Positions 11,265 to 57,969 of a DNA stretch of 64,000 nt are shown here, one piece after another. Position numbers and translations under genes: made by a program. Under the pieces are notes generated by a model that saw only the letters and a program-made list of their open reading frames with translations, did not search any database and was not told the origin of the DNA. Every line of letters starts with the position of its first letter. The first letter of the stretch is position 1. The stretch lies in the sequence record OR699282.2; one strand, written 5' to 3'. This DNA comes from Escherichia phage BAU.Micro_ELP-22.

Positions 11265-11273
11265 TAAAACAAA

Positions 11274-11921: not shown

Positions 11922-11930
11922 GGATATATA

Positions 11931-12350: not shown

Positions 12351-12358
12351 TAATAAAA

Positions 12359-12391
12359 GGGTTGACTTCGGTCAGCCTTTTTTGTTATGAT
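12359..12391 (+). terminator. terminator with embedded promoter
   Basis: GGGTTGACTTCGGTCAGCC + T6, then TATGAT. Confidence 0.6.
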
Positions 12392-12419
12392 GTTGGTATT
12401 AACTACAGAGGATAAAGTA

Positions 12420-13061: not shown

Positions 13062-13122
13062 CAGAACTGATGTTCTGGTGTATTCTTAATAAACCATAAA
13101 AATTGCGGTAAAGGATAAAATC

Positions 13123-13404
13123 ATGCGTTCATTTGAAAACTTAATAGGTAAGCATCTTTTATCTGAAATTGATGCAGACGTTAAAGAATTATCCAAATCA
13201 AAAAGTTACATTCATTTGGATGAACTGTTTATTAAGTACGGTGAGATTGGTTTTAAGTCATTATTTGTTTTTACTATGAAAGTACATAGTTTAAAGTACT
13301 TCGATTTGAGTTCTAAAGATGGTGAACCGAATCTATATTACATGTATTACCTTAAGAACAAAGATGAAGCTAATACATTACTCTCTGAATATATATTGGG
13401 GTAA
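13123..13404 (+). CDS. hypothetical protein
   Basis: ORF 93 aa; SD AAGGA. Confidence 0.6.
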   Translation: MRSFENLIGKHLLSEIDADVKELSKSKSYIHLDELFIKYGEIGFKSLFVFTMKVHSLKYFDLSSKDGEPNLYYMYYLKNKDEANTLLSEYILG

Positions 13405-13406
13405 AA

Positions 13407-13745
13407 ATGGAACAATATTTTGAATTAATAAACAAAGTATCATTTTATGTAGTATCTTTGGTTTGGGTGTATTATATGTTTTGCTACATTATTGCATTCT
13501 TCCGATACACTACTTTATATGAACGTATCTACTATGATGCCCCAATTTCATTCTTGATGTTTTGTGCATGTACGTGGGGAATATTAGAAGTACTGATATG
13601 TGGGTATAGTACTGATGAATTAAATCTGGTATCGGTCTTGACTGGGTTTTCATTTGTTGTTATGATAGCTGCCGTTCCAGTATGGTTGTTCTTTGGACTA
13701 GTTCATCGCATTGATATATGGCGTTCTAATATCCCTGAAAAGTAA
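13407..13745 (+). CDS. small membrane protein, paralog family M
   Basis: 112 aa, hydrophobic; C-terminal basic tail (RSNIPEK) shared with paralogs. Confidence 0.65.
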   Translation: MEQYFELINKVSFYVVSLVWVYYMFCYIIAFFRYTTLYERIYYDAPISFLMFCACTWGILEVLICGYSTDELNLVSVLTGFSFVVMIAAVPVWLFFGLVHRIDIWRSNIPEK

Positions 13746-13748
13746 GGA

Positions 13749-14096
13749 TTGGTAATGATTTATTACACTAACATGTTTGCCTATGCTGTTGCTTGCATTT
13801 ACATTGTTTACTTCTTATTCGGTGGAGTACTGTGCTTCTTTAAGTACAAAACGTTGTTCAACCGAATGTACCCAAATCATCCAATTGTAGTTGTACTTTT
13901 GATTCTTTCAGTTTCTCAAATAATCGTTGAAACTACAATGGGTATCAGTAGTGTACATTATAGTTTTGGCACTATAGTAATTATTACTATGCTTATTGCA
14001 TACATTTTAGTACTTGGATATGGTATCTTTGGTAATATTGGTATGAAAATGTATCATCGAATTAAAACATTACGTGATAATCTACCGGAGCGTTGA
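13749..14096 (+). CDS. small membrane protein, paralog family M
   Basis: 115 aa; tail RDNLPER. Confidence 0.65.
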   Translation: MVMIYYTNMFAYAVACIYIVYFLFGGVLCFFKYKTLFNRMYPNHPIVVVLLILSVSQIIVETTMGISSVHYSFGTIVIITMLIAYILVLGYGIFGNIGMKMYHRIKTLRDNLPER

Positions 14097-14097
14097 T

Positions 14098-14442
14098 ATG
14101 TATAATTTGAACCTAATCTCATATATTATAACAACACTGTTTACATTCTATGCCTTTGTTGGTATAATCCTACTGTACTTTAAATTTTATAAAGTGTTTA
14201 ACCGTTTCTATCCTTCAATGGAGAATGAGTTTTTCTTTGTGTTGTACGTAGGTTACACATTAATGGCTACATGTTTCACTGTAGCCGATGGTGTCATCGG
14301 CATTAAAACTGATTCCCCAAATGGTAGTACGCTGGTTGCATTTATTCTTACTGGATTCCTTGCAACTTATATTGCCTTCATTACAACATGGTCAGTGGTT
14401 GAATTTCTCTTGCGACTACGAAAGAATATGCCGAATCGATAG
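14098..14442 (+). CDS. small membrane protein, paralog family M
   Basis: Start at internal ATG; tail RKNMPNR. Confidence 0.6.
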   Translation: MYNLNLISYIITTLFTFYAFVGIILLYFKFYKVFNRFYPSMENEFFFVLYVGYTLMATCFTVADGVIGIKTDSPNGSTLVAFILTGFLATYIAFITTWSVVEFLLRLRKNMPNR

Positions 14443-14451
14443 GAGACATAT

Positions 14452-14706
14452 ATGTTTGCGTTGCGTAATAAAAACACTAAAGAATTATTATGTATTGATA
14501 CCGTATGGGATTGTGCGGGATCAACTACAGTTCTTGAAGAAGGAACTGGATATTGCGTGTTTGTTGTTCATGATAGGAATGAACTCGAATTATTACTTGC
14601 TGAGTTCAATGCTGGTGGTAATCCTAACAGTACTGAATACCCTGAGATTATCAATCCAGCACCACCAGGCTCTTATGAAATTCTACAACTGTGGGAGTTG
14701 AAGTAA
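14452..14706 (+). CDS. hypothetical protein
   Basis: ORF 84 aa; SD AGGAGA. Confidence 0.6.
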   Translation: MFALRNKNTKELLCIDTVWDCAGSTTVLEEGTGYCVFVVHDRNELELLLAEFNAGGNPNSTEYPEIINPAPPGSYEILQLWELK

Positions 14707-15086
14707 TGCGTCAAATGCACAAAGTAACCGAGCTAAACAAGCGTCTGGTTAAACAATCAATGTTCGAGGATAAAGAGTCTTATTATAACTTTAAACGTGC
14801 TGTAGAGGCTGCTATCCACATTCAGAAGCTTAAAGAACGTGGTTGTATTATTCTGGAAAATGGGTCGGAAGTTGTAACGGATGACTTTAGTGTAGCGTTT
14901 GATGTTTCACCTGACGGGACGCTATCAATGCCCCGCTTAGGAACTGGAAACATGACTGTTTGGGTTGGCTTCACTATGGGGAATGTACCTGGTACTGTGT
15001 ACGTAGATGATGCGGAATTGAAAGACAGTTTCAAAAACTTATCTTATCTTGAACCACAATACGCACATGAAATGAATTTATTTTGA
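14706..15086 (+). CDS. hypothetical protein
   Basis: Start at internal ATG after GGAG (126 aa). Confidence 0.55.
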   Translation: MRQMHKVTELNKRLVKQSMFEDKESYYNFKRAVEAAIHIQKLKERGCIILENGSEVVTDDFSVAFDVSPDGTLSMPRLGTGNMTVWVGFTMGNVPGTVYVDDAELKDSFKNLSYLEPQYAHEMNLF

Positions 15087-15087
15087 G

Positions 15088-15115
15088 TTGACAAACACAT
15101 TCAGTACTGTATAAT
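15088..15115 (+). promoter_or_regulatory. sigma70-like promoter followed by 5' stem-loop (15126-15144)
   Basis: TTGACA, ~16 nt spacer, TATAAT; hairpin GGGATGA / TCATCCC before the SD. Confidence 0.55.
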
Positions 15116-15162
15116 GCTTATCAAGGGGATGAACTTCTCATCCCTACAATCGAGGAACTACC

Positions 15163-15717
15163 ATGATTACTTTTAAGAAAACTGCTAACCACATCCATGA
15201 AATCTACATTAACGGTCACAAAGCTGGCCTTCTTCGTTTACTCGCCCATCATCCTGATGTTACCGTATCTGATAATGAACCTAAAGATTGGCGTGTATTT
15301 TTCTTTGGAAAGTACAGTGATTTTCAAGTATCAAACCTGAAGAACATTCGTTCAGTATGCACGTTAACTGAAATTAAAGAAAAGTTAGAAAAAGCATTGA
15401 AAACTAATCCAGATGGTGTTCTTCCACCTGATAACTTTGTAGAGAAAGGTTATGCATTAGCTCATTTCAAAGATGGTACTATTCAATCTATCAGTACTGA
15501 ATATGAATATCAATGGACTGAGTACTTCACTTATGGATCGCGTAATACATTGATGGCTTCACGTAGTAAATTGGAAGAAGTACTGACTCGTATGAATGAA
15601 CGCGAACGTCAATTTTATGACAAACCAGAAATGTGGAGTTCAACTTACATTGACCGTATTGACTATGTTATTATGACTCCAATCTTTGACACTGCTTACT
15701 ATGATTCTTTGAAATAA
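15163..15717 (+). CDS. hypothetical protein
   Basis: ORF 184 aa; SD GAGGAA. Confidence 0.7.
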   Translation: MITFKKTANHIHEIYINGHKAGLLRLLAHHPDVTVSDNEPKDWRVFFFGKYSDFQVSNLKNIRSVCTLTEIKEKLEKALKTNPDGVLPPDNFVEKGYALAHFKDGTIQSISTEYEYQWTEYFTYGSRNTLMASRSKLEEVLTRMNERERQFYDKPEMWSSTYIDRIDYVIMTPIFDTAYYDSLK

Positions 15718-15728
15718 GGATAACTTAT

Positions 15729-15905
15729 ATGAAACTACGTACTCGTAATCGACTGATGGATGCACTGTACCATGAACAGCTTTCACTGAATGAAGTGAAG
15801 CGTCAGTTAATGTACACATATCTGTTACCCGCTCGCATTGCAAAACAACGTGCTAAAGAATTGCTGAAAGAAGCAATCGAGTACTGGGAATCTGATTCGT
15901 ACTAA
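15729..15905 (+). CDS. hypothetical small protein (58 aa)
   Basis: SD AAGGA; below ORF-track cutoff. Confidence 0.45.
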   Translation: MKLRTRNRLMDALYHEQLSLNEVKRQLMYTYLLPARIAKQRAKELLKEAIEYWESDSY

Positions 15906-15933
15906 TTGTCACGTTAATTAAGTGAGGCGATAA

Positions 15934-16185
15934 ATGAAAATTTTATTAGTTCTAATACTACTAATTGTTTTACCATTTACGTTAGTATCCCCTGAACTTG
16001 CATGGAATGTGTTTGTGTACTTACTATGTACTATTGTAGTAAATGGTATCTTGTTCTTAGTTCTATTCATAAATGGAATAGGACACGGTGGAGGATGGAC
16101 CAGTACTGCTGATATTGTACATAAAACCACTATGTCTTTATTTGTAGTGTGGAATTTATTCTGGACTTGGTTTGTGTTCTTCTAA
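15934..16185 (+). CDS. small membrane protein
   Basis: ORF 83 aa, hydrophobic. Confidence 0.55.
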   Translation: MKILLVLILLIVLPFTLVSPELAWNVFVYLLCTIVVNGILFLVLFINGIGHGGGWTSTADIVHKTTMSLFVVWNLFWTWFVFF

Positions 16186-16194
16186 TTAAAAAAT

Positions 16195-16566
16195 ATGAAT
16201 ATAGATTTGAAAGGTGCAACCCGAACTGTTATCCTCATTGGGGAATACGCTATCAAGATTCCAACCTTTAAAAGTTGGAAGCTATTCTTAACAGGGATGA
16301 TAGCTAACCTCAATGAACGTTCGTGGATGCAGTACTCCAAGCGTAGTGATACTGGTATCTGTCCTACTTTGTGGTCATCATGTACTGGACTAGTAACTGT
16401 ACAGAAACGTTGTAAGCCAGTACAACATAGGGGTTTATTTTGGGTGGAGTTGTGTGCTTTAGCATTGAATTCAGAGTTAAGTACTGACTTCTTCTATTCA
16501 GATGCGAAGCCAGAAAACTTTGGGTATCTGTGTGGTAAGTTGGTTAAACTTGATTATGGAGATTAA
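16195..16566 (+). CDS. putative mini protein-kinase-like protein
   Basis: AIK lysine motif, DAKPEN catalytic loop and KLDYG (DFG-like) read in translation. Confidence 0.5.
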   Translation: MNIDLKGATRTVILIGEYAIKIPTFKSWKLFLTGMIANLNERSWMQYSKRSDTGICPTLWSSCTGLVTVQKRCKPVQHRGLFWVELCALALNSELSTDFFYSDAKPENFGYLCGKLVKLDYGD

Positions 16567-16567
16567 T

Positions 16568-16837
16568 ATGTACGCACTGTATAATAAAGAAAAGAAACGA
16601 TTTGCTAAGGTTGAAATTTCGATTGATACATTTGATATGTTGGAGTACTGTATTGTAACTGACCTATATGCTAACTTGTATTACGTTCTTGATGACGTAT
16701 CAGTACTGCAACGATTGCTTGAGAATTCCAAAAGTCAATGCCAGGGCATCCATGATGGTTCATCTTATGAAACACCTGAGTGTTCCTACGGCTATCTGGA
16801 CGGGTATGAGATTGTGAAGTTGGGGATTGTTGAATAA
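16568..16837 (+). CDS. hypothetical protein
   Basis: Internal ATG with SD GGAG (89 aa). Confidence 0.5.
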   Translation: MYALYNKEKKRFAKVEISIDTFDMLEYCIVTDLYANLYYVLDDVSVLQRLLENSKSQCQGIHDGSSYETPECSYGYLDGYEIVKLGIVE

Positions 16838-16932
16838 ATGGATTAAACAATGAAGAAGTGTATGATTCTTTGTTCTAATCACCATCGCATGGTACATTCT
16901 GGTAGACTATGTTTGATTGAAAGAAAAAAAAA

Positions 16933-16965
16933 GGGTTGACTTCAGTCGGCCCTTTTTGCTATAAT
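16933..16965 (+). terminator. terminator with embedded promoter
   Basis: GGGTTGACTTCAGTCGGCCC + T5, then GCTATAAT. Confidence 0.6.
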
Positions 16966-16993
16966 CATTTCATCGAAACGAGAGGATGAATAC

Positions 16994-17509
16994 ATGACAC
17001 GCATTAACTTAGTACACGTTAAAGAACTTGCTGACCAACATCTGATGGCTGAATATCGTGAACTCCCACGTGTATTTGGTGCTGTACAAAAACACGTTCA
17101 AGCACGTAAGCGTGTACGTGATTTCAAAATTAACAGTACTTACCTGTTGGGTTCAGGTCATGTAACATTCTTCTACAACAAGTTATTGTACTTACAGAAG
17201 CGTCATATTGATATTGTTAACGAATGTTTGCGTCGTGGTATGAAGATTCAAAACACTGAAGTAAACGACATTAGCGGATTCCCTGCTGAGTTTTGTAATG
17301 ACTACGTACCATCGGAGTCAGAGATTAAAATGTCTCGTGATCGTTTGATTGAGAAGCTCCAGATGAAGCCTAAGTGGTATAAGTTTACTGATGTTGAATG
17401 TCCACAGTACGTTAAAGATATGCAGAACGTAAGTAGTAAGAACGAATCTAGTACTGATATGTTCGACGAAATTGAAGAACAAATCAAAGATGAAATGAAT
17501 AATTATTAA
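16994..17509 (+). CDS. denV: pyrimidine dimer DNA glycosylase (endonuclease V)
   Basis: N-terminus [42 protein letters not shown] closely matches T4 endonuclease V as recalled; SD GAGGA. Confidence 0.9.
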
Positions 17510-17547
17510 AGGAAAGGATTGACTTCGGTCACATAAAGGAACATAAC

Positions 17548-17742
17548 ATGTTATTAGTATATTCAAAGCGTTTCTGGATTTCTTTCATTGTACTTTCGCT
17601 AATCGGCTTCGGTGTGAGTATAATCTTTTCGTGGGATGAATTGGGTACATGGTATTATGAAGTTCCGTGGTACATGAAGATAGCTCCTTGTTATGCGGCA
17701 TTGTTCGTGTCATTCCTTATTGTTGTCTTCAGCGAGGATTAG
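17548..17742 (+). CDS. small membrane protein
   Basis: ORF 64 aa, hydrophobic; SD AAGGA. Confidence 0.5.
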   Translation: MLLVYSKRFWISFIVLSLIGFGVSIIFSWDELGTWYYEVPWYMKIAPCYAALFVSFLIVVFSED

Positions 17743-17848
17743 TTGATGTAGTATTTGCTACACCAAAGTATTTGGATATTTTAGATATAAACATGGACAC
17801 CTGTTCTATCTTTCTGTATTATGTACATCACCAAATGAGGAATACAAC

Positions 17849-18208
17849 ATGGCATCTTTAAGTGAAATCGCAGAATACAACCCACTAACAATCTCAACAA
17901 TTCAACGTACAAAAACTTTTTATTTCCGTCCTGCTGATGGATGGAAACGTGGAATGAATGGTGACTATCGAGTACTGGAAGATTCACTAATCGAGCGTAT
18001 CAACTCTGAACTACAGAAGTATGAAGGTGTTAAAGTTGTGCGTTCAACTTCTCGTTATTTTGAGTACTACATTGAGTCTTCAACTGTAAATGAAAACTCA
18101 TCATTATCGGTGGACAACACTGATATTCTTCGTAATGCAGTTGGTATGTTATGCAACATTGCAGAAGAAATGGGATTAACTATTAGTACTATGAGTGAGT
18201 TAGAATAA
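17849..18208 (+). CDS. hypothetical protein
   Basis: ORF 119 aa; SD GAGGAA. Confidence 0.65.
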   Translation: MASLSEIAEYNPLTISTIQRTKTFYFRPADGWKRGMNGDYRVLEDSLIERINSELQKYEGVKVVRSTSRYFEYYIESSTVNENSSLSVDNTDILRNAVGMLCNIAEEMGLTISTMSELE

Positions 18209-18214
18209 CATAAA

Positions 18215-18247
18215 GGGTTGACTTCGGTCAGCCCTTTTTGCTATAAT
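18215..18247 (+). terminator. terminator with embedded promoter
   Basis: GGGTTGACTTCGGTCAGCCC + T5 + GCTATAAT. Confidence 0.65.
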
Positions 18248-18273
18248 CATTTCATCAACTCAAGAGGCAACAC

Positions 18274-18507
18274 ATGAAACTATCTTTTATACGATTGGCT
18301 GAATTCTTTGGTACTGATGTAATTACTCTACAACAAATCGCAGATAATACATCATTAACTACACAAGAAGTACTTGATTTAGATGTAATTCAGTGCGATA
18401 ATACTTCCATCGATTACAAAGAAGGTCTTGTCGAAAAAGATAAGATTCAAGCTAAAATTAATGGTGCTGGACGGGTTCAGTACTGGAAAGGAGTTTTAAG
18501 TAAATGA
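18274..18507 (+). CDS. hypothetical protein
   Basis: ORF 77 aa; SD AGAGG. Confidence 0.6.
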   Translation: MKLSFIRLAEFFGTDVITLQQIADNTSLTTQEVLDLDVIQCDNTSIDYKEGLVEKDKIQAKINGAGRVQYWKGVLSK

Positions 18508-29072: not shown

Positions 29073-29140
29073 ATTCCCTCCTTTATTCATTATACTATAT
29101 TTAATACAAATAAGAAAGCCAGTACAAAGTACTGGCATAA
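29060..29140 (-). promoter_or_regulatory. conserved 5' cassette of RCC1 family: terminator hairpin GCCAGTAC-N3-GTACTGGC, TATAAT, SD
   Basis: Near-identical ~80-bp copies upstream of 8 of the 11 genes (ends near 30360, 31166, 32428, 33638, 36030, 37200). Confidence 0.6.
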
Positions 29141-29142
29141 TT

Positions 29143-30285
29143 TCAATAAACATCCCAAGGTAATGGTGTCTTCCTAAATCCATACCTGGTTGTGCTCGCA
29201 CCATCGCCAGCAATGTATCGACCGATGCCACATTGGTATAACTCTGTACTACTACATATAGCACCACCAATAGTACCACTACCCCACTGAATTATATTAG
29301 AATATGTTATTGGTAAATCACTACATTTAGTATATACACCAACGGTAGCAGAACCACTAATACCACCAAACATGCTTCGGTTAGCACCAGTGTAATATAT
29401 ACCATCTGGACTCATAAATGCAGAGGTGTACGTTGTACTACAATCCACTGGACTTCTTATAGTATTAAGATCGCCAGGGTATGTTCTAGCAGCATATACG
29501 TAAACATTACCATCAGTAGTAATACCATTACCCAACTGACCACTGTTCTGACCACCACACGTAACTAACGATGCAGAACCAGAAACAATTGCAGTAGCAT
29601 TATACGAAGTACCCATTGCAATAGAAGCACCAGACAATAGTTTTGGTGTAACGATAGCTGTTGTATTACCCTGTCCTAATTCACCATTTGTGTTACGTCC
29701 CCATGCGTATATAGAAGTCGTATCCAATCGACATAGTACTGAACCATAACTAAACGTATATCGCATGTCATTTACAGCAGAAGGCAAATTAACCTTAGTT
29801 GCAACACTAATAACACCACCAGTAACACCACTGTTTGCGTTCATGTTACGACCATATGCATATAAAGAACCATCTGAAGTTTTAATATGCATCATACCAT
29901 CTGTGCAATATAATGCATCGATGCTATCCACCGCAACCGGACCCATACTGGCAGTTATATCGGTCCACCCAAGAGTAGTAGTGCTAGAAATTAAGTTATT
30001 TCCTGCGTAAAGGATTCTATTATTATTAGTAACTACCACTGTATATCTAGCAGTAACTCCAATTAATCGAACATCAGTATATATCTTAGACCACGCACCT
30101 AGTGAATTGGTATTTGCATCCAAAAAGCCTAACTGCCCATCTGTATTGTATCCAATACCCCATACATCACCTGCACTGTCCAATAACACTTCATGTGAAA
30201 AGCCAATCTTAAAATCTTTTATTGTAGGAACTACTGGAACTGGTGCTATATTCCCGTACTTAACCATTCTTGCAAAAGGTAACAT
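29143..30285 (-). CDS. RCC1-like repeat protein, leader-peptide family
   Basis: Start at MLPFARMVKYGNIAPVP; motifs GYNTDGQLG, GRNTNGELGQGN, GGQNSGQLGNG. Confidence 0.8.
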   Translation of the reverse strand: MLPFARMVKYGNIAPVPVVPTIKDFKIGFSHEVLLDSAGDVWGIGYNTDGQLGFLDANTNSLGAWSKIYTDVRLIGVTARYTVVVTNNNRILYAGNNLISSTTTLGWTDITASMGPVAVDSIDALYCTDGMMHIKTSDGSLYAYGRNMNANSGVTGGVISVATKVNLPSAVNDMRYTFSYGSVLCRLDTTSIYAWGRNTNGELGQGNTTAIVTPKLLSGASIAMGTSYNATAIVSGSASLVTCGGQNSGQLGNGITTDGNVYVYAARTYPGDLNTIRSPVDCSTTYTSAFMSPDGIYYTGANRSMFGGISGSATVGVYTKCSDLPITYSNIIQWGSGTIGGAICSSTELYQCGIGRYIAGDGASTTRYGFRKTPLPWDVY

Positions 30286-30356
30286 AATTCCCTCCTTATT
30301 CATTATACTATATTTAATAAAAATAAGAAAGCCAGTATCAAGTACTGGCCTATATT

Positions 30357-31094
30357 TTAGACTGAATTGTTAGGATAATATCTCCCACGTCCCCATATTA
30401 TTCGCACAGCACCACCACCAGCAGCCGTATAAGAAAAATTATCCCATATACTACCACCACCACCATACATCTTACCAGCACCACCACTACCAGCACCACC
30501 ATTATATGAACCATCGTATCTACCGCCAATACCATTAGCACCTTGAACAATAATACCAGTACCACCACCCGTACCAATGAACGAGGTATTATAGAATGCA
30601 CCACCACCACCGCCGCCGCCAGCACCATTTTCACCAGTGATTGCATCTCCGTTACCACCTTTACCAGTGTAGCCACCAGCACCACCACCAATGACTGCAC
30701 CACCACTTACACCAGTATTGCCACCATTACCACCACCATCATTAATAGCGTTAGCAGCTTTTCCACCTAGTCCACCAACCGTATATGCACCAGTGAAGCT
30801 AACACATAGTTTTTCAGTTCCACGATATAAACCGTTTTCAACTGGTGTAGTAGTGTTGGTATGCGTAAGAGAAACACTTAAGTACTCACCACTAGTAACC
30901 GGAATATTATTACGCCACGATAAGCCGCCACCAGCACCACGTTGACCACCCGGCGAAATAACACATACTGATATTTCGGTAACGCCAGCAGGAACTGTAA
31001 ATTGTGTTGTTCCTATTGTCGTGATTAATTGTTCACCATGTGGCTTATATTCAATTTCATTCCCGTACTTAATCATTCTTCCAAAAGGTAACAT
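30357..31094 (-). CDS. glycine-rich protein carrying the same N-terminal leader
   Basis: 245 aa; MLPFGRMIKYGNE start then Gly-rich low-complexity body (GGxGxGG runs), no RCC1 motifs. Confidence 0.7.
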   Translation of the reverse strand: MLPFGRMIKYGNEIEYKPHGEQLITTIGTTQFTVPAGVTEISVCVISPGGQRGAGGGLSWRNNIPVTSGEYLSVSLTHTNTTTPVENGLYRGTEKLCVSFTGAYTVGGLGGKAANAINDGGGNGGNTGVSGGAVIGGGAGGYTGKGGNGDAITGENGAGGGGGGGAFYNTSFIGTGGGTGIIVQGANGIGGRYDGSYNGGAGSGGAGKMYGGGGSIWDNFSYTAAGGGAVRIIWGRGRYYPNNSV

Positions 31095-31166
31095 AATTCC
31101 CTCCTTTATTCATTATACTATATTTAATACAAATAAGAAAGCCAGTACTTTGTACTGGCTAAATTA

Positions 31167-32357
31167 TTACAATTGTCTAGGTGTATCCAGTACATATCTA
31201 TTTGTAGTAGGACCACCATCATCATATGTTCCGGTTGAATATATATTTTTCATATCAGCAGTTAGGAAAGTACGATACGAACCGCGATATATTTTTATTT
31301 TATCATACATAGAATATGTTATTCCTGACGGCAATGGACATGCAGTAAACTTACCAACAGTTGCACTAGTACCAATACCCAATGAACCAGCATAACTACT
31401 GGCATTTAAACCAGTTGCATATACACCAGTACTCGTAACTAGTATACTAGATTGTGTTGGGTATCCTGTATGAATTGAATACAAAGTTCCAGTTGGTAAT
31501 GTCGTACTATTGCTCCCTAATACAGCAAGTGCCGAACTGGTTGTGGTATTGTTACCCCATGCACCATTACTCGCTAAACCACCAACTAGAAACTGACGTG
31601 CACCAGAACTTGGATTCTCAACCAAAGCACTGACTGCACCACTTGAGCATCCAGTGTATTGTAACGTTTTTGTGTATGTTGTACTTGGTTTATATAAAGT
31701 ATATTCATTAAATGGTGTCCATGTGGTACTGGTACTTATACCTGACGTACCACCACCAATATATAAATTATTTTGTGTATCAAAAAACATTACACAGTTA
31801 TTTGTTGACTGTATTTGTGCAATATCAACATTAGGCGTGACAGCTTTTACAAATGATCCATCTGTTATTTGTTGAGTACTACCAGTACCATCAGCGAATT
31901 GTCTAGCCCCACTCCAACCAGTACTCCATATTGTATTATTATCCATTAATACCGTAAACCACGTAGTACCTCCATACATCTGTTTAATTGAAGTACTTGA
32001 ACTTTGCGTGTACAAATTTTCAATATATTGGTTATAACTTAAAAACGTAGTAGTACTAGTTGGTAAACCAACATGATCACCATATCCACAATAAAAATAA
32101 TTTGAGTCATTATCTTTTACTAATAAAGTTCCTTGTGTAACCCAGCAATCGTTAACGTTTTCTCTAATTAATGTCCATGATTTTAATGCAGTGTTGTTTC
32201 CCCTACCAAATTTCCCAAAACTATTATTCCCACGTGCATATAGTTGACCATCCGTATACAGAACAACAACATCTAAATCAGTTGGGATTATTTTCTTAAT
32301 TTGAAGTGGTACTGGGGCAATATTCCCATAATTCATCATTCTTGCAAAAGGTAACAT
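31167..32357 (-). CDS. RCC1-like repeat protein, leader-peptide family
   Basis: 396 aa; MLPFARMMNYGNIAPVP start. Confidence 0.75.
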   Translation of the reverse strand: MLPFARMMNYGNIAPVPLQIKKIIPTDLDVVVLYTDGQLYARGNNSFGKFGRGNNTALKSWTLIRENVNDCWVTQGTLLVKDNDSNYFYCGYGDHVGLPTSTTTFLSYNQYIENLYTQSSSTSIKQMYGGTTWFTVLMDNNTIWSTGWSGARQFADGTGSTQQITDGSFVKAVTPNVDIAQIQSTNNCVMFFDTQNNLYIGGGTSGISTSTTWTPFNEYTLYKPSTTYTKTLQYTGCSSGAVSALVENPSSGARQFLVGGLASNGAWGNNTTTSSALAVLGSNSTTLPTGTLYSIHTGYPTQSSILVTSTGVYATGLNASSYAGSLGIGTSATVGKFTACPLPSGITYSMYDKIKIYRGSYRTFLTADMKNIYSTGTYDDGGPTTNRYVLDTPRQL

Positions 32358-32428
32358 AAATTCCTCCTTTATTCATTATACTATATTTAATACAAATAAG
32401 AAAGCCAGTACAGTGTACTGGCATTATA

Positions 32429-33568
32429 TTATTTCCACGGTAGAAGTGAATCAGGAACCCTTGTTGGTACAGTAGTTGAAGACATTCCAGTAAGATTGGG
32501 TACACCACATGTGTATAAATTATTATATTCGTCAACTAACATCGTATAAGAATAGCTCTTACAAAAACTACTAAGATTACTACCTTCTAATGCAGTAAGA
32601 TCCATTTCAGCGAATGATGTTATATACATATCAGTTGTACCAATACCACATTGACCATTTGAATTAAGGCCACATGAAAATAACTTATTATTATTATTAA
32701 TTATACAGGATGGTCCGGTAAGGTTTGTCCCAAGCTCACCCACCAACTCCACTTCTCCTTGGAATGATAAATTTGGAATTAATGTACTCATTGGGGCTAC
32801 TGACCTATTTCCTGTACCTGCTTGTCCATAGTCGTTAATAGATGCAACTTTAACATTACCATCATTAAGAAATATATAAGAAGTTTCATTTGTATTGACT
32901 GCTTTAATTGCATTACTAATCGAAGTATCTTGTGTAAATGTGAGCAAGTTTTGTGTCGTCGTTCCTGATACAAACGTTCTACCTGCATACCAATATGAAC
33001 CATCATTTAGTACTAATCCAGTACTATATATTGCACAACCAGCACTGATAACATTTTCTATTGTACTATAGGTGAATCGTGAAACGCTTGAAGTTGATCC
33101 ATTCCCAAAAACACCACCAGTACCAGCACCACAGTAGAACCACTTTCCATTTTTTAAAAATACACGCATACACGAAGATATCACAACACTATCAATATCA
33201 TCTGCACTGACACCGAAATCAGTAAAGTTCTGTGTTATATCAACCCAAACGCCGTTAGTGTTTGAAGATAGTATTGGAATAACAGTACGTCTACCAGTGT
33301 ACCAAATAGTACCATCTTTCTTTATAGCAATTGTTCCTTGTACCCCACCCCAATATCGTGTAACATTTGAGTTGACAAGAGTCCATTCAGTTGAAGAGTC
33401 CAATGAACCATTACCACTTTGTCCATATGCTGAAGAACCAAACCAATATAGATTGCCATTTGTGTGTAAATAAAATTTGGCATCAGCAGAACATTGTAAC
33501 CTGTTTTTAGGTAGAATCAGTTCAGGTGCGATATTCCCGTACTTAACCATTCTTGCAAAAGGTAACAT
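32429..33568 (-). CDS. RCC1-like repeat protein, leader-peptide family
   Basis: Start at internal MLPFARMVKYGNIAPE; motifs GLNSNGQCGIG. Confidence 0.75.
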   Translation of the reverse strand: MLPFARMVKYGNIAPELILPKNRLQCSADAKFYLHTNGNLYWFGSSAYGQSGNGSLDSSTEWTLVNSNVTRYWGGVQGTIAIKKDGTIWYTGRRTVIPILSSNTNGVWVDITQNFTDFGVSADDIDSVVISSCMRVFLKNGKWFYCGAGTGGVFGNGSTSSVSRFTYSTIENVISAGCAIYSTGLVLNDGSYWYAGRTFVSGTTTQNLLTFTQDTSISNAIKAVNTNETSYIFLNDGNVKVASINDYGQAGTGNRSVAPMSTLIPNLSFQGEVELVGELGTNLTGPSCIINNNNKLFSCGLNSNGQCGIGTTDMYITSFAEMDLTALEGSNLSSFCKSYSYTMLVDEYNNLYTCGVPNLTGMSSTTVPTRVPDSLLPWK

Positions 33569-33638
33569 ATTCCCTCCTTTATTTGTTATACTATATTTAA
33601 TACAAATAAGAAAGCCAGTACAGTGTACTGGCATTATG

Positions 33639-34748
33639 TTATTTTGGTAAATCAATTTTAGTAAAGACTGCAACATCCTCGATTGCACCTGGAATGGCGT
33701 AATACGATCCAGTACTATACACATCTCCATTTTTGGTTAATATCGATGTCAAACCATCACTAAAAAGAACATCCCTAATCTCACTAACTTCAACGGGTAA
33801 TTGTAAATTGGTAGCACTATATATAGCACCAGTTTGAGAATTGTTTAATCCCAAACCACGGTTCGCCCCAACACCCTTCTGATATGTACTAGTAATTACC
33901 ATTTGTGTAGCAGTATTTAAGGCAGGTGAATTCGTCATAAACAATGGAGAACTATTAGGCAAAGTACTTACAGGAACTGCACGGAATGTAGTCGTACCTG
34001 AACTAAGAAAGTTTGGAGTTTGACCACATACGAAATATGATGTACCATTATAGTAATTTAATGCATTACCACCAATGGCTGCATCGATTACACCAGAACT
34101 ACGCAATCCCCAAGTGTTAATTTGTGTTTGGTTCCCCGTACCATGCTGCCCACTACTATTCCATCCAGAACTATATAGCTTATTATCTAATGTAAGATAC
34201 ATACTATCATTCGCATTGGTCATTACTTTACGAACGTTCGTAGCACATTGAGTTAATGTGTAAATTGATGAGGAACCAATACCCAAAGAACCACGATATC
34301 CATTATCTCCTGCACCATAGAGTACTGAATTAGTGCTAAGTACAAATATTAAACCATTTGTACATACAATATTAGCAATTTCACTTACTGGTATAGCATT
34401 GGTAAACCAATTAGTTCTTTCAACTAATACAGTACTGTAAGAAGTAGTTGTAGAAGATGAGAACCAGTACGTTTGACCTGATGTCCATATCGTATTATCA
34501 TTTTTAATAATAACAAGTGTACGATCACCCACGAAAAAATTAGAAACATCTGCACTTACTAATGTCCACGAAGACACCGTGTTGGTATTACCATTTCCAG
34601 ATTCACCACCTTGATTTCTACCTATGTAATATAAATCATGTGAATCAGTCAATAAGAATTGGCCTTGGGTAGAAGCACCAACTTTAATTATTTTTTTAGG
34701 ACCAGGGACAATATTTCCATACCTAATCATTCTTCCAAAAGGTAACAT
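33639..34748 (-). CDS. RCC1-like repeat protein, leader-peptide family
   Basis: Start at MLPFGRMIRYGNIVPGP; GWNSSGQHGTGN; SD overlaps the stop of the upstream gene. Confidence 0.75.
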   Translation of the reverse strand: MLPFGRMIRYGNIVPGPKKIIKVGASTQGQFLLTDSHDLYYIGRNQGGESGNGNTNTVSSWTLVSADVSNFFVGDRTLVIIKNDNTIWTSGQTYWFSSSTTTSYSTVLVERTNWFTNAIPVSEIANIVCTNGLIFVLSTNSVLYGAGDNGYRGSLGIGSSSIYTLTQCATNVRKVMTNANDSMYLTLDNKLYSSGWNSSGQHGTGNQTQINTWGLRSSGVIDAAIGGNALNYYNGTSYFVCGQTPNFLSSGTTTFRAVPVSTLPNSSPLFMTNSPALNTATQMVITSTYQKGVGANRGLGLNNSQTGAIYSATNLQLPVEVSEIRDVLFSDGLTSILTKNGDVYSTGSYYAIPGAIEDVAVFTKIDLPK

Positions 34749-34756
34749 ATTCCCTC

Positions 34757-35959
34757 CTATTGTTGCCATAACTGCGTTGGCATTAATGTTAGTGTAGTAG
34801 TACTATAAGTGCCATCTGGCAATCTACCACCATTTCCATTCCAGCCACCACATGCATATAATTTATAATCTTTAGTAATTATTATGGTTCTGCTCCAATC
34901 TTTAGATGCCATAAGAACATTGTCATAACCACCACTTATTGCACTAAGATTAAAAATATTCCAAGTTCTAACTAATGTATTAGTTCCATTACCTTCTTGA
35001 CCATATGAGTTAGCACCACTACTTCTAACATATGGTGCGTATTGTGCCATAGGTGCACCAATTGATGCATTTCCCATATTACTTGGACAAATAAAAGTAC
35101 TGTACTTACTTACATCAACCGTGACCGATGTGTTCCTAATTGGTGTTAGCTGATTTACCGATGTAGTCGTACCATTACCAGCTTGTCCAGAACTGTTAGC
35201 CCCGCTATAATATACAGACCCACCAGTAGTAAACCACCAAGTAACATCGTATGTAGTACTAATATGTTCTACATTACTAATCACGAATTTGTTCAAATAT
35301 ACAACAGAACTACCACCACATCCACTTTCACCAAAGTTATCCTTACCACAAAACCATGCATCTTTATTTGATTTGATATAGTGCGTTCCTTGTAATGAAC
35401 ATGCCATATGTGTAACTTCACCCATATTAGTCATAACTGTGAGTGTAGGGATGGAATTTTTATTCCCAGAGCCACATTCACCATTAGTATTTCTTCCACA
35501 CGCAATTACTCTACCATCGGTTAATAATATTCTAGTACTTTCACCTATATATACACTCTTGATCATATTAGCCATAACACCTATTTTATTAAATGCAACA
35601 GTAACATCAGTCCATGTTGTCAAATAACCATTAACAGGTGTTGCATCTCCATAATCAGAAAATGCACCCACAGACCCAGTGTAGTATATTTTATTATCCA
35701 AATCAATCATCAATGAACCTTGAACACCAAGCCAAAAGGCTGCACAGTTCCTTGCAAGTACTGTAAATGACGAAACTGCTGCTGAATTCCCAAGACCAAA
35801 TTGATAAAAGTTATTACTACCATAACCATATAAAGTATTAGTTGGGTTATGGAGATACATACAGTTTGTATAATGTTGTTGTAAAACATCTGAGAACTCT
35901 ACAGGTACTGGACCTGGTGCAATATTTGCGTACTTAACCATTCTTCCAAAAGGTAACAT
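34757..35959 (-). CDS. RCC1-like repeat protein, leader-peptide family
   Basis: 400 aa; MLPFGRMVKYANIAPGP; GANSSGQAGNG, GRNTNGECGSGN. Confidence 0.8.
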   Translation of the reverse strand: MLPFGRMVKYANIAPGPVPVEFSDVLQQHYTNCMYLHNPTNTLYGYGSNNFYQFGLGNSAAVSSFTVLARNCAAFWLGVQGSLMIDLDNKIYYTGSVGAFSDYGDATPVNGYLTTWTDVTVAFNKIGVMANMIKSVYIGESTRILLTDGRVIACGRNTNGECGSGNKNSIPTLTVMTNMGEVTHMACSLQGTHYIKSNKDAWFCGKDNFGESGCGGSSVVYLNKFVISNVEHISTTYDVTWWFTTGGSVYYSGANSSGQAGNGTTTSVNQLTPIRNTSVTVDVSKYSTFICPSNMGNASIGAPMAQYAPYVRSSGANSYGQEGNGTNTLVRTWNIFNLSAISGGYDNVLMASKDWSRTIIITKDYKLYACGGWNGNGGRLPDGTYSTTTLTLMPTQLWQQ

Positions 35960-36030
35960 ATTTCCCTCCTTTATTCATTATACTATATTTAATACAAAAA
36001 GAAATGCCAGTATCAAGTACTGGCATCGTA

Positions 36031-37140
36031 TTACTTGGGTAATGGAATTGTGGTCCATCTATTTGCGGCAACGTCACCTGGTACATATGTAGGACTACCA
36101 CTTACAGCAATAGTTTCATTACCATCATATACAACACTGAAGTTTGTGCACGTATACAACGCTGCGGCATCTGGATTGTAATTTTCAAGTGTTAGTGTAT
36201 TGGTGAACAAATTCAATGCAGTAGTTGAGCCGTTTTTACCATATGCACCTGTAGTATATATCTTTCCTTCTGTTGTTGAGTACATATTAACATATGACCC
36301 AGATGATGATTTAGCAATTTTATCTATCTTGCTATCTATTGTTTTAGAGTTAAATTGAAATGGATATACCTGTACGTTAGTATCTAAACCATTTCCCAGT
36401 TCCCCATTTAACTGCCACCCTGTGTGGTACATTCCCGCATTTGTATATGCAAGCGTACTATACGCATTACCACCCATTATTTTAGTGCCAGATAATTTTA
36501 AACCAAACGATGTCCACTTACCAGTTTCATTTCCTATGGAACCATAAGCACTTGTACCACACGCACGAAGCTCGCCATTTGACGTTAGAAGCACTGTATT
36601 ATTAACGTTACCAAATATATCAATAACCTGATTAGTGCCATTATTCAGTACTGAAGTAAAAGTACTCTGTGAGTAAGTACTACCTGAACCAACAGAACCA
36701 TTTGTGTTCATACCTCTTCCATATACAATTTTACCATCAGCACTAACATAGTGCATTGAATCAAAACCAATGGATATCATTTTAATATCAGATATATCTG
36801 GAAATGAAGAAGTTACATCTACTCCACCTAGTGGAATTGTATTATTTCCTAAACCTAATGAGACATTAGTTCCGTGCATTATAAATTTATCTTCTTTAAA
36901 ATATAAAATATTATATCCACCAGCCCATGCATTATTAACGCCATTTGTAATCAGTACCCATTTATTTTGTGTAGTAGTTCCAGTAATATTTAACTGTTGA
37001 TAGTTATTGATTCCACAACCATATAGCGATCCATCACCATATAGTACATATAAATTATCATATCCTGCAATAACTTTCTTTATTTTTTTGGGTACAGGTG
37101 CTACGTTCCCATAATTCATCATTCTTGCAAAAGGTAACAT
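36031..37140 (-). CDS. RCC1-like repeat protein, leader-peptide family
   Basis: 369 aa; MLPFARMMNYGNVAPVP; first gene of the array, divergent from the 37244 promoter. Confidence 0.8.
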   Translation of the reverse strand: MLPFARMMNYGNVAPVPKKIKKVIAGYDNLYVLYGDGSLYGCGINNYQQLNITGTTTQNKWVLITNGVNNAWAGGYNILYFKEDKFIMHGTNVSLGLGNNTIPLGGVDVTSSFPDISDIKMISIGFDSMHYVSADGKIVYGRGMNTNGSVGSGSTYSQSTFTSVLNNGTNQVIDIFGNVNNTVLLTSNGELRACGTSAYGSIGNETGKWTSFGLKLSGTKIMGGNAYSTLAYTNAGMYHTGWQLNGELGNGLDTNVQVYPFQFNSKTIDSKIDKIAKSSSGSYVNMYSTTEGKIYTTGAYGKNGSTTALNLFTNTLTLENYNPDAAALYTCTNFSVVYDGNETIAVSGSPTYVPGDVAANRWTTIPLPK

Positions 37141-37243
37141 ATATCCCTCCTTTATTCATTATATCATATTTACCCCATAAAGAAAACCCTTGACATCCTT
37201 TCAGTACTGGTGTACTATAGAAGGAATATAAGGAGAACTACAC

Positions 37244-46142: not shown

Positions 46143-46424
46143 GCAGTTTACAAATCTTTACAATTGCCGGTATTGACTTATTTTGTCAGTACTGGCATAA
46201 TGTATTCATTGGCAGATAAGCCGTAGCCCATAGGGTGCGGGAGTGTATCTATAGAAAAATTAGTTTAGTATAGTTACAATTGTGCACCCGGTGGGTTAGC
46301 TGTTGTCATGTGGTATATTATGCCAGTACTTGATAATGCTGTCAATACTTTTTTTTACTATTCAGTACTGAAAACTATTTTTAAAAAGTACTTGCAAACT
46401 ATGTTTAAAGGCGTATAATGTTTT

Positions 46425-46505
46425 ACATCAGGACGGGGAACGAAATAAGTAACTTCCCGTTAAGTAGCCCAGGAGTAAGGCACACGAAAAACTCCCCTGA
46501 TAAAA
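46425..46505 (+). ncRNA. candidate structured leader / small RNA between tandem promoters
   Basis: CAGGACGGGGAACG..ACGAAAAACTCCCCTGA with paired ends; near-copy at 57554-57628. Confidence 0.3.
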
Positions 46506-46569
46506 TAGTTTGACAAATGTTTTTAAAAGCGTATAATACTTACATCAACTACTGAATGAGGGTTACAAA

Positions 46570-47258
46570 ATGAAAACTATCACTACTACTACTTTCGTTA
46601 TGGATTTTTCTGAATTGAACGCAGAACAAAAAACGTCAGCTATCGAACTGGTTCGGGAACGTGAAAAAAACTCAAACGACATTTTTCTGAATTGAACGCA
46701 GAACAAAAAACGTCAGCTATCGAACTGGTTCGGGAACGTGAAAAAAACTCAAACGACAATTATTTTTCTGAAAGTGAAATTGAATACTATAAAGAAACAG
46801 TACTACCGGAATATGGCATTAATGACGCTGAAATACAATTCAGTGGTTTTTGGTCCCAGGGTGACGGTGCATCAATCAGTACTGACCACGTTGACGCAGT
46901 GAAGTTTTTACGCAAGGTAAGAGCATTAACTAAGTATCGCTCAATCCGTCACTTGCTGAATGAAGATGATTTGGCGATGAGTGTAAAGCGTTCGCACTCC
47001 CACTACTCGCATGAGAATACTGTAAGCGGGTACATTGAATCGGCTTACACTGATTTAACCGCAAAACAAGAAACGTTAGTTAATGAGCTTGAGGAACTAC
47101 TCACTGAAACTATTCGTGAATTGTCCCGCAAGTTGTACCGTGATTTAGAGAATGCATATGAGGATCAATTCACTACTGAAAACATTACGGCACTGATTGA
47201 GGGTAACGAGTATCAATTCAATGTTATTGATGGCGTAGTGGAATCAATCGAATATTAA
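46570..47258 (+). pseudogene. gene disrupted by perfect 77-bp tandem duplication
   Basis: ATG 46570 frame stops at 46693-46695 inside copy 2; rest of ORF open in the frame restored by deleting one copy. Confidence 0.6.
46604..46757 (+). repeat. perfect 77-bp tandem duplication (2 copies)
   Basis: 46604-46680 identical to 46681-46757. Confidence 0.9.
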
Positions 47259-48146: not shown

Positions 48147-48232
48147 AAAAGTACTTGCAATTAGTTTTCAGTACTGTATAATGGTTTACATCAAAGGGAG
48201 AAATGGTTCTCCCTGGTAATGAGGAAAATAAA

Positions 48233-49575: not shown

Positions 49576-49598
49576 AGCCCACCTGGTGGGCTTTTTTG
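49576..49598 (+). terminator. intrinsic terminator
   Basis: AGCCCACC-TGGTGGGCT hairpin + T6. Confidence 0.7.
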
Positions 49599-49802
49599 TT
49601 TTTGTAGTATCGTAGTACTGAGATACTTTGAAAATAGTTTTAAAAAAGTAGTTGACATTACCGCAGAAAAGCGTAGAATGTATTACATCAAGACGGGGAG
49701 CACTAAGTAGACCGCCAGTAAGTCGAACGAAAAACTGGACACGTCGAGAAAACTTTGATACACTAATAAACGTAAACTAAACTTTAATTGAGGATTTATA
49801 AA

Positions 49803-50285
49803 ATGGCTAATGTAAAATCATTCATCAAAGCACTGGTAGCAAATGAAACTAACGTCGCGGCTGAGATCCTGGCTGAACTGGATAACGATACCATGAAAGC
49901 GGTACGCAATAATTTTAACATCGCGTACAGTACTGCGAAAGAACTACAAGCAAATAAAGCGGCAGAAATTGAAGCGGCAAAGGCGGCCCGTGAAGCAGAA
50001 CTACAAGCAACAATCGAAAGTATTCAGGCGGCAGTAGTTGGATTGGATCTGGAAGTAGTTACAGAGATGGCACAAAAAGCCCTGGCGGTTAAGTATGGGG
50101 AAGACAAGCCAGAAGTAAAAGCCAAAAAATGGATTCAGGAACGCGTAGCGGTAGTACTGGACAACGGGGAAGAATATCTGATTCCGGTGCGTGGTAACTG
50201 TATTGCGGTAGTACTGGACGCGATTAACTCCAGTGGTATGACTCGCGAGGAATGGATCGAAGCTCATCGCAAAGTTGAAGCATAA
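49803..50285 (+). CDS. Ala-rich putative coiled-coil protein
   Basis: Start at ATG with SD GAGGA (160 aa); long structured leader upstream. Confidence 0.65.
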   Translation: MANVKSFIKALVANETNVAAEILAELDNDTMKAVRNNFNIAYSTAKELQANKAAEIEAAKAAREAELQATIESIQAAVVGLDLEVVTEMAQKALAVKYGEDKPEVKAKKWIQERVAVVLDNGEEYLIPVRGNCIAVVLDAINSSGMTREEWIEAHRKVEA

Positions 50286-50306: not shown

Positions 50307-50334
50307 AGCCCACCTTAAACGGTGGGCTTTTTTG
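50307..50334 (+). terminator. intrinsic terminator
   Basis: AGCCCACC-TTAAAC-GGTGGGCT + T6. Confidence 0.7.
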
Positions 50335-52881: not shown

Positions 52882-52967
52882 AATAATACTTGCAATTAGT
52901 TTTTAGTACTGTATAATGTTTTACATGAAGGGGAGAAATGATTCTCCCCAATAACAGGAGAAACAAA

Positions 52968-53350: not shown

Positions 53351-53356
53351 AAAAAG

Positions 53357-53388
53357 TGGTTGACTCCGGTCAGCCATTTTGCTATTAT
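53357..53388 (+). terminator. terminator with embedded promoter (GGTTGACTCCGGTCAGCC variant)
   Basis: Hairpin + TTTTGC + TATTAT; same cassette near 57394, 60385, 62648. Confidence 0.5.
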
Positions 53389-53571
53389 ATATTCATTGAG
53401 AGATAGCTCACTAGCCCACAGGGTGCAGGAGTGTATCTATTGTATAATGTTTGAGTACTGAAAACTATTTTAAAGTATTTGATAAAAAGTACTTGCAAAC
53501 TATCTCAATAAGCGTATAATGTTTTACATCGCAAGGGGAAACGGTTTCCCCTAGTAATAAGGAAACGAATC

Positions 53572-57379: not shown

Positions 57380-57553
57380 AAATAATTGAAAAAGGGATTG
57401 ACTCCGGTCAGTCCCTTTGCTATTATATACGCATAGAAACAAATCAGCCCACAGGGTGCATAAATGTATCTATTGTTAGCTGGTGGCTAGTACTGAAAAC
57501 TATTTTTAAAAAGTACTTGCATTGTACTTAGAATCAAGTATAATGTTTTACAT

Positions 57554-57628
57554 CAGGACGGGGAACGAAACAAGTAACCCCGTTAAGTAGTCCAGGAGTA
57601 AGACATACGAAAACCTCCCCTGATAAAA
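57554..57628 (+). ncRNA. candidate structured leader / small RNA (copy of 46429-46505 element)
   Basis: Near-identical sequence with base changes, between two promoters. Confidence 0.3.
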
Positions 57629-57693
57629 AAGATTGACAATAGTTTGAAGTACTGATAAAATAATCACATCAACTACTGATAAGGAAACATAAA

Positions 57694-57969
57694 ATGCGGA
57701 TTCTACTGACAGCTAACGAAATCGAACAAGTACTGACTACTAACCTGGAAGACTGGAAACGTGAAGCAGATATCCAGGCGGTTCAATGGCTTAACGATAA
57801 GTTAACGCCGGATGACTTAAGCAAGATTGTAGATCCTCAATTCTACGAAGATATTCACGACACCGCGTTAAGCGTCGAGGATGTACTAGATAAGCACTAC
57901 ATTGATACTGATTTGCAGGTTTACGGTCGTAAAAACTTTATCACTATTCACGATATTTACAATAATTAA
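57694..57969 (+). CDS. hypothetical protein
   Basis: ORF 91 aa; SD AAGGAAA. Confidence 0.65.
   Translation: MRILLTANEIEQVLTTNLEDWKREADIQAVQWLNDKLTPDDLSKIVDPQFYEDIHDTALSVEDVLDKHYIDTDLQVYGRKNFITIHDIYNN

Follow-up and report, generated by a model that had tools for sequence, protein, structure and literature searches.

Three copies of a small, structured leader RNA are encoded in the 64-kb stretch of DNA that was analyzed here in its entirety (hereafter referred to as the window). The RNA family to which they belong is found only in phages and is shared with the leader of the bacteriophage T7 A1 transcript, and the membership of the window copies in this family is nearly certain. The element is best explained as a self-contained, non-coding RNA domain of ∼75 nt that constitutes the extreme 5' end of some of the early transcripts synthesized by the host σ70 polymerase. 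We rate the family as new and previously unannotated within a known and broad kind, namely the structured leader RNAs of phages.

Three copies of the element within an early-promoter array

The DNA of the window is that of a jumbo coliphage of the Asteriusvirus type, and the region around the element displays 96-98% identity with the PBECO4, 121Q, and G17 group. The segment from 43 to 64 kb is an array of σ70-type early promoters, with a short 5' hairpin and then a small gene downstream of each, and in related records it falls within a direct terminal repeat. The element occurs exactly three times in the 64 kb, always on the plus strand, at positions 46427-46501 (W1), 57552-57624 (W2), and 49687-49759 (W3). 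A degenerate pattern for the core matched three sites, with 0.00 expected on the basis of 100 shuffles, and the core covariance model assigned scores of 53.2, 50.3, and 49.2 bits to W3, W2, and W1, respectively (E about 1e-10). The best score for a site other than these copies, on either strand of the 64 kb, was 9.8 bits. All three copies contain the core sequence plan described below, and each is positioned on the sense strand within the first ∼100 nt of a σ70-type early promoter.

A leader situated between two promoters had been pointed out in an earlier note on this DNA. Indeed, the sequence quoted there is located at 46430-46505, flanked by a promoter with the boxes TTGCAA and TATAAT separated by a 16-nt spacer (46392-46419, plus strand) and by a TTGACA promoter at 46510. 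The former was recognized in a promoter scan and belongs to a family of promoter repeats. The latter (46510-46537, plus strand; TTGACA-16-TATAAT) agrees with the consensus at 12 of 12 positions, lies 9 nt past W1, and drives the gene starting at 46570. This gene (PHROG 5162) is split into the open reading frames 46570-46695 and 46692-47258 by a perfect 77-bp tandem duplication at 46604-46758 (2.0 copies, 100% identity), the length of which is not a multiple of three. The length at this site differs among related phages.

The near-copy claimed in the same note was found at 57552-57629 and differs from W1 at ∼7 positions, including a 2-nt indel. Its upstream promoter (57517-57544, plus strand; TTGCAT-16-TATAAT) is again a member of the promoter-repeat family, and its second promoter (57633-57661, plus strand; TTGACA-17-TAAAAT) drives the gene at 57694-57969. 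The more diverged relative also proved to be present, ahead of gene 49803 at 49687-49759. The W3 promoter (49652-49679, plus strand; TTGACA-16-TAGAAT), identified by the promoter scan, lies directly 3' of an intrinsic terminator at 49576-49592; both W2 and W3 directly follow a terminator. There is no second promoter after W3, which serves as the 5' UTR for gene 49803-50285 and reaches its ribosome-binding site. The W3 unit contains this single gene and ends with a strong terminator at 50307-50328.

Transcription is predicted to start at A46427 for W1, A57552 for W2, and A49687 for W3, such that the element would begin at +1. These positions were assigned by analogy with T7 A1, which has the same 7-nt distance from the -10 box and the same start, AUC(G/A)AG. 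The transcript start is the same in T7 and in the window, as can be seen by comparing AUCGAGAGGG with AUCAGGACGGGG.

The promoter-repeat family comprises 22-24 copies between 43000 and 64000 of the window (AAAAAGTACTTGCA...TATAATGTTTTACAT), examples of which lie at 48155-48215, 52890-52950, and 60819-60880. At approximately +5 of these promoters is a short hairpin such as GGGGAGAAATGATTCTCCCC, followed by a ribosome-binding site, and the transcript start of the family, AUCGAGAGGGG, is that of T7 A1. We also suspect the existence of combined terminator/promoter units, in which a -35 box is contained within a terminator-like stem and is followed by a -10 box (AAAGGGATTGACTCCGGTCAGTCCCTTT GCTATTATAT). 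There are at least nine such copies on the plus strand, including those at 53353-53390, 57391-57428, 60382-60419, and 62645-62682, and others within 6490-20000. A small conserved hairpin (GCCCACAGGGTGC / GCCCATAGGGTGCGG) is positioned 3' of these units. A second conserved block (CACCCGGTGGG...TATATTATGCCAGTACT) precedes W1 and, in Salmonella phage Munch, likewise precedes the element; this block may be another non-coding element. The loci for the small hairpin or the second block are 46215-46340, 57435-57470, 62690-62724, 53400-53432, and 60430-60461 in the window and 3290-3350 in L007. Elsewhere in the window, on the minus strand at 26600-37200, an extensive array of paralogous genes consists of ten tandem units of ∼1.2 kb each, the start region of which is conserved (...AAAGGTAACAT in the plus-strand reading).

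The pseudoknot core and the closing interactions

The core follows the plan UAAGUA-[GNC]-N-[5 nt]-(N)UAA-[GNC]-NNACGAAAN(N)-[5 nt], with its A-rich loop, NNACGAAAAN, lying between the second GNC triplet and the final 5 nt. S1 (3 bp) arises from pairing between the GNC triplets, and S2 (4-5 bp) from pairing between the 5-nt blocks. Since the two stems are interleaved, the core folds as an H-type pseudoknot, the third loop of which is A-rich. In W1, the UAAGUA segment extends from 46461-66, S1 is formed by 46467-69/46479-81, S2 by 46472-75/46492-95, and the A-rich L3 by 46482-91. The corresponding strands in W3 are 49710-12/49722-24 for S1 and 49714-18/49735-39 for S2.

Covariation renders the H-type pseudoknot nearly certain. 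Across families the middle pair of S1 is AU in 22 cases, UA in 5, CG in 2, and GC in 1, and thus all four Watson-Crick pairs are represented. Within the window, S1 is GCC/GGC in W1, GUC/GAC in W2 (57590-92/57602-04), and GAC/GUC in W3, the change between W1 and W2 being compensatory. The forms of S2 include GCCUG/CAGGC, GCUUG/CAAGC, ACCUG/CAGGU, ACUUG/CAAGU, and GCCAG/CUGGU. In W1 and W2 the S2 helix is GGAG/CUCC, and in W3 it is CCAG/CUGG; the W3 relatives LTH01 and UPEC06 combine ACUUG/CAAGU with the closing helix GACGG/CCGUC. For 27 distinct sequences, 95.8% of the core cells were paired versus 78.6% in shuffled controls and at most 32% when the partners were slid out of register (at most 34% over all of the all-family core analyses). 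In an alignment of 34 distinct rows built with a model from which S1 had been left out, S1 was nevertheless paired in 96% of the cells. Three of its four S1 exceptions were chance pattern matches included as rows. As a negative control, seven chance pattern matches were inspected, and these lacked a Watson-Crick middle pair in S1 (one contained a U-G wobble). Genuine deviations were seen in EmilieFrey, which has a single S1 mismatch, and in the unverified CMSTMSU record, in which an S2 strand is deleted.

The unpaired UAAGUA and UAA segments are near-invariant, although partly by construction, because the search pattern by which most members were gathered fixed UAAGUAG, UAAG, and ACGAAA. Members retrieved by BLAST deviate from these motifs to only a slight extent (CAAGUAG, ACGAAC, and AAGAAA).

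Directly 5' of the core there is usually a hairpin, P1, that also covaries, with the forms CCGG/CCGG, CCAG/CUGG, CCAC/GUGG, ACGGGGA/UCCCCGU, and GGGAUG/CAUUCC. It is found at 46433-39/46454-60 in W1 and at 57558-63/57578-83 in W2, and it is absent in W3, LTH01, UPEC06, L024, and Hallingskeid. The domain is closed by its 3' tail in one of two ways. In the T7-like form, the loop of P1 pairs with the tail 3' of S2, and five distinct loop-tail helices were observed: GUCAA/UUGAC, GAUUAG/CUAAUC, GCUAA/UUAGC, GUCGGU/ACCGAC, and GUCAUC/GAUGAC. In the alignment of this type, 92% of the cells in four helices were paired versus 12-35% in slid controls; both sides had changed in 11 of the 18 pairs, and none of 500 shuffles performed as well. 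In the jumbo-phage forms, including W1, W2, and W3, the tail pairs instead with nucleotides +1 to +6 (P0). The P0 helix is AUCAGG/CCUGAU in W1 (46427-32/46496-501) and W2 (57552-57/57619-24), and in W3 it is AUCAA/UUGAU (49687-91/49755-59) plus GACG/CGUC (49692-95/49742-45). The T7-type leader differs further from the window copies in having an extra 5' hairpin, within which the 5' end is paired from +2, and in that its tail is also the -35 box of A2. In every type, base pairing of the 5' end begins at +1 or +2.

The window copies possess a closing interaction with the 3' tail, for which the support from covariation is modest. The compensatory changes in P0 are few (AUCAG/CUGAU versus AUCAA/UUGAU and AUC..GAU versus AUG..CAU). 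A comparison of duplex energies for each leader with its own tail or with those of other members did not separate the two groups; it was not discriminating because CGG/CCG motifs are common to all lineages.

The helices P0, P1, and S2 (57595-98/57615-18 in W2) were recovered by RNAfold and RNAalifold in unguided predictions. The earlier note had proposed that the ends of the leader pair through both UCAGG/CCUGA and GGGGA/UCCCC. The first of these pairings is correct and corresponds to P0. The second, in its long-range form, is not the conserved interaction: GGGGA pairs locally with UUCCC/UCCCC in P1, and the 3' CUCC pairs with GGAG in S2. The ACGAAAAAC segment that had been marked is the A-rich third loop of the pseudoknot, a fold that goes beyond the earlier reading. 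Note that in muut (L002 2510-2590), in comparison with outra (L003), one G has been added to the 5' G-run and one C to the 3' C-run. This co-insertion would lengthen an alternative GGGG/CCCC pairing and hints at a second conformation.

Distribution of the family and comparison with known RNA classes

The T7 genome (NC_001604) contains a match to the core model at about 550-588, between the annotated start sites of A1 (498) and A2 (626), and the full domain with hairpin P1 and tail spans ∼532-597. The T7 core scores 61 bits with the family model. Its core plan is identical to that of the window copies, the sequence is nearly identical, and the order of promoter, element, and second promoter is the same. 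The T7 A1-A2 region and its equivalents in T3, phiA1122, K1F, and other Studiervirinae belong to the same RNA family. A BLAST search with a T3-like copy yielded 504 records of T7-like phages, with one site each. The hosts of these phages belong to at least ten enterobacterial genera plus Aeromonas, and include Escherichia, Klebsiella, Salmonella, Yersinia, Enterobacter, Citrobacter, Serratia, Pantoea, Erwinia, Aeromonas, and Providencia. In T7 only promoters are annotated in this region, none of the 504 records carries an RNA annotation for the element, and annotation of it was likewise absent in all records seen across the phage families. No description of the element was found in the literature searched, including that on the T7 sequence itself; older subscription papers on T7 and T3 lay outside the search.

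Copies of the W1 type with ∼90% identity by BLAST are present in the Vequintavirinae and Stephanstirmvirinae (A73, W70, A7_1, muut, outra, and EmilieFrey), where the layout is also promoter, element, promoter. Matches to the W3 core were found in T7-like Yersinia phages (at 553-587) and in Munch-like Salmonella and Klebsiella jumbo phages. The strict pattern used on IMG/VR matched 121Q only, and a relaxed pattern was employed for the final scan, which provided ∼30 viral and 20 true metagenomic instances. A BLAST search of W1 against 5,426 E. coli genomes returned no match, and hence the element is neither a sequence-detectable mimic of a host RNA nor carried in prophages. A scan of 185,579 bacterial and archaeal species, each represented by a single genome, yielded nothing but a T3-like contig and one match attributable to chance.

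The promoter-proximal, sense-strand position of the window copies is shared by every relative, each being preceded by a promoter of like orientation. The S2 closing pair is G-U in 10 of the 34 rows, which would be a C-A mismatch if read on the other strand. Taken together, the G-U pairs and the constant orientation relative to the promoter indicate an RNA on the sense strand. The suggestion in the earlier note of a structured small RNA or a cis-regulatory leader is thus supported by the promoter-proximal position, by the sense-strand G-U pairs, and by covariation, which became strong once relatives from other phages were added.

A small protein-coding gene was considered and rejected: the start of the sole open reading frame over W1 (46418-46513) falls within the -10 box, and indels of 1, 2, 3, and 4 nt distinguish the copies. 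An intrinsic terminator or attenuator was likewise rejected in that no GC-rich hairpin with a U-tract is present at W1, W2, or W3; no terminator-like site lies at or just past any of them, and the tails are A-rich. The homology search against Rfam that had been recommended with the earlier note revealed no matching family. When the whole window was searched with the Rfam 15 covariance models, there was no match at the gathering score, only noise was observed around W1 at E values up to 10, and nothing was found in T7 between 400 and 1000. ARAGORN identified 0 tRNA or tmRNA genes in the window. There is no boxA near the window copies, the sole exact boxA in the window being at 6125 on the minus strand. 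In the metagenomic contig L024 (4094-4185), a perfect boxA (CGCTCTTTAACAA) is situated 16 nt past the element, and in T7-like phages a boxA lies further downstream, after A3 (at ∼400-420 in the Kayfunavirus sequences L074-L077).

In the spacer between A2 and A3 of T7 (L038, ∼640-720) there is an 8-bp long-range pairing, GUCAACCG...CGGUUGAC, the 3' strand of which is the -35 box of the next promoter. This spacer also contains CAUAAGGUGAAACAAAACGG, which appears core-like by eye. A second copy was not detected there by the core model; the spacer may be a degenerate paralogue of the element.

Proposed function and alternative explanations

The genes downstream of the element belong to at least five unrelated families, the first gene in T7-like phages being ocr. 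The encoded proteins gave no hint as to function: all fall into PHROG families to which none has been assigned, and one of them, outra gp153, additionally scores above the Pfam cut-off for a DUF. No masked ribosome-binding site was found in the window copies. Given that the same unpaired nucleotides are retained in unrelated phages that have only hosts in common, that the module precedes unrelated genes, and that neither a terminator nor masking of a ribosome-binding site is involved, we infer that the element is a gene-independent module recognized by a host component and not a gene-specific switch. The near-invariance of the unpaired nucleotides across phages that have hosts but not proteins in common suggests either such recognition or a demanding tertiary fold. 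Its retention at the 5' end of transcripts from strong early promoters, in hundreds of virulent phages of enterobacteria that belong to unrelated families, suggests that these phages have a common requirement when infection begins.

Our best guess, offered tentatively, is that the element functions as a cis-acting, gene-independent leader domain read by the host polymerase or by the RNA decay apparatus. It would act while emerging from the polymerase. Burial of the 5' triphosphate end would block the 5'-end-dependent decay mediated by RppH and RNase E, and the pseudoknot would be presented to the transcribing host RNA polymerase or to an associated factor. Transcripts from the lead promoters, which lie just past terminators, might thereby be made more processively or be longer-lived. 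That P0 begins at the predicted +1 is consistent with burial of the 5' end. Against a role in cis is the second strong promoter that follows within 0-45 nt in most lineages, on account of which the downstream genes are also transcribed without the element. Furthermore, RNase III cleaves the A1 leader off the T7 mRNAs at R0.3, and 5'-end protection therefore cannot benefit these mRNAs. An obvious need for antitermination is lacking at W3, since its unit comprises a single gene with a strong terminator at its end. In vitro transcription of the T7 A1 leader has been performed for decades, and we know of no put-like effect reported from it.

Structured RNAs that act on the host machinery without phage proteins are rare, and the put RNA of phage HK022 is the textbook case. 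The put RNAs (putL and putR), ∼70 nt in length, function as processive antiterminators in the nascent transcript, require no phage protein, act independently of the gene, and fold into two stem-loops arranged in a V shape with a triplex in stem I (PMC9378689). Like put, the window element is phage-encoded, of similar length, located immediately 3' of early host-polymerase promoters, and gene-independent. It differs in architecture, with a pseudoknot in place of the two stem-loops and triplex. Homology between the two was rejected in that the best score of the core model in the HK022 genome is 8.7 bits and the folds differ. The put RNA, which binds the zinc-binding domain of the polymerase β' subunit and reduces pausing and termination in cis, is best regarded as a functional precedent for polymerase binding or antitermination and not as a relative; the effect of the element could be comparable to that of put, with an unrelated fold.

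It is possible, though doubtful, that the family represents a new class of phage regulatory RNA, namely a compact double pseudoknot at the 5' end of the first transcripts that binds the polymerase or neutralizes a defense or decay factor. Such a class would extend over T7-like, jumbo, and rV5/phi92-like coliphages and would have gone unnoticed in the T7 A1 leader, one of the transcription templates in widest use. If the element does increase early transcript output or block a host factor, it would also be a transferable part for the engineering of phages and the design of expression systems. Testing would be easy in the T7-like members, both genetically and biochemically, given A1 templates, purified E. 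coli polymerase, and phages that are simple to engineer. Even if it is a plain stabilizer, an annotation gap would be filled in ∼500 phage genomes, and the family would be a candidate for a new Rfam entry.

The main rival explanation, which we consider rather unlikely, is that the upstream promoter and the element constitute a dedicated RNA gene for a trans-acting small RNA or decoy. A compact, 5'-protected RNA would neutralize a host factor or an RNA-recognizing defense protein in the manner of pseudo-ToxI, its 3' end being produced through processing by RNase E in the A/U-rich tract past the closing helix or, in T7, by RNase III at R0.3. The element has its own strong promoter, usually followed directly by that of the gene, and the domain is closed from +1 to ∼+75 and then continues as a single-stranded AAAAUAG. 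The release of T7 A1-to-R0.3 leader fragments in vivo is well established and fits this explanation, as do the movement of a ∼90% identical module between phage families regardless of the downstream gene and the conservation of unpaired nucleotides in phages with only hosts in common. Yet no terminator or defined 3' end is visible, and in W3, LTH01, and L024, where there is no second promoter, the element forms the 5' UTR of a gene or lies upstream of a boxA. Nor does it resemble the antitoxin or small-RNA families in Rfam or anything in E. coli genomes. The ToxI antitoxins are pseudoknotted RNAs of ∼36 nt, and phage-encoded mimics of them are a known anti-defense strategy. They are a precedent for a decoy only; the element differs from ToxI in having no tandem repeats, no sequence or model match, and no identified toxin partner. 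A plain 5'-terminal stabilizer, in which an elaborate GGGGA...UCCCC hairpin counters RppH and RNase E without a specific partner, is less probable still. The position of the element is that of the generic 5' hairpins at ∼24 other promoters of the window, which P1 resembles; these hairpins and ompA-type 5' stem-loops share with it the location at the 5' end, the paired terminus, and a G-rich stem like GGGGA/UCCCC. Pairing of the 5' end from its first or second nucleotide in all types would suit such a role, as would the monocistronic W3 unit, with the element at one end and a terminator hairpin at the other. The simple hairpins vary freely in sequence, however, whereas the element adds a conserved pseudoknot common to several phage families, and a mere stabilizer would not require that a pseudoknot and near-invariant unpaired nucleotides be maintained in T7-like, jumbo, and rV5/phi92-like phages alike. 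In addition, the T7 leader is cut off its mRNAs, and the genes past W1 and W2 have their own promoter and a short 5' UTR.

A ligand-sensing, riboswitch-like aptamer of the preQ1-I or SAM-II type, reporting the state of the host to early transcription, seems very improbable. The strand order S1a-L1-S2a-L2-S1b-(A-rich L3)-S2b is that of small pseudoknot aptamers, and the A-rich third loop running along stem 1 is a feature of preQ1-I, SAM-II, and the T4 gene 32 pseudoknot, the latter being an element of a phage 5' leader. The loop nucleotides are highly conserved, and the co-insertion in muut hints at an alternative long-range pairing of GGGG with CCCC. In contrast to these RNAs, the element has no Rfam match, with no riboswitch hit even at E up to 10; no expression platform in the form of a terminator, antiterminator, or overlap with a ribosome-binding site; and no link to a single gene, the downstream genes being unrelated. 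It is also absent from the 185,579 bacterial species genomes save for the T3-like contig and the chance match. Least probable of all is a DNA-level feature of the second promoter (an UP element or a factor site) or the recent transfer of a promoter cassette, with no function for the RNA. The A-rich 3' part does lie just upstream of the next -35 box in W1, W2, and T7, the tail UUGAC is itself the -35 box in T7-like phages, and the W1-type copies retain ∼90% identity between phage families. Covariation largely refutes this reading, in that compensatory changes occur in four helices and the G-U pairs would be C-A on the opposite strand. The element also persists in W3 and L024, where no promoter follows. 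An explanation by an UP element alone was rejected on the same grounds and on the basis of L011, L017, L036, and L065, in which the promoter is 20-45 nt away and the non-promoter tail still matches the hairpin loop.
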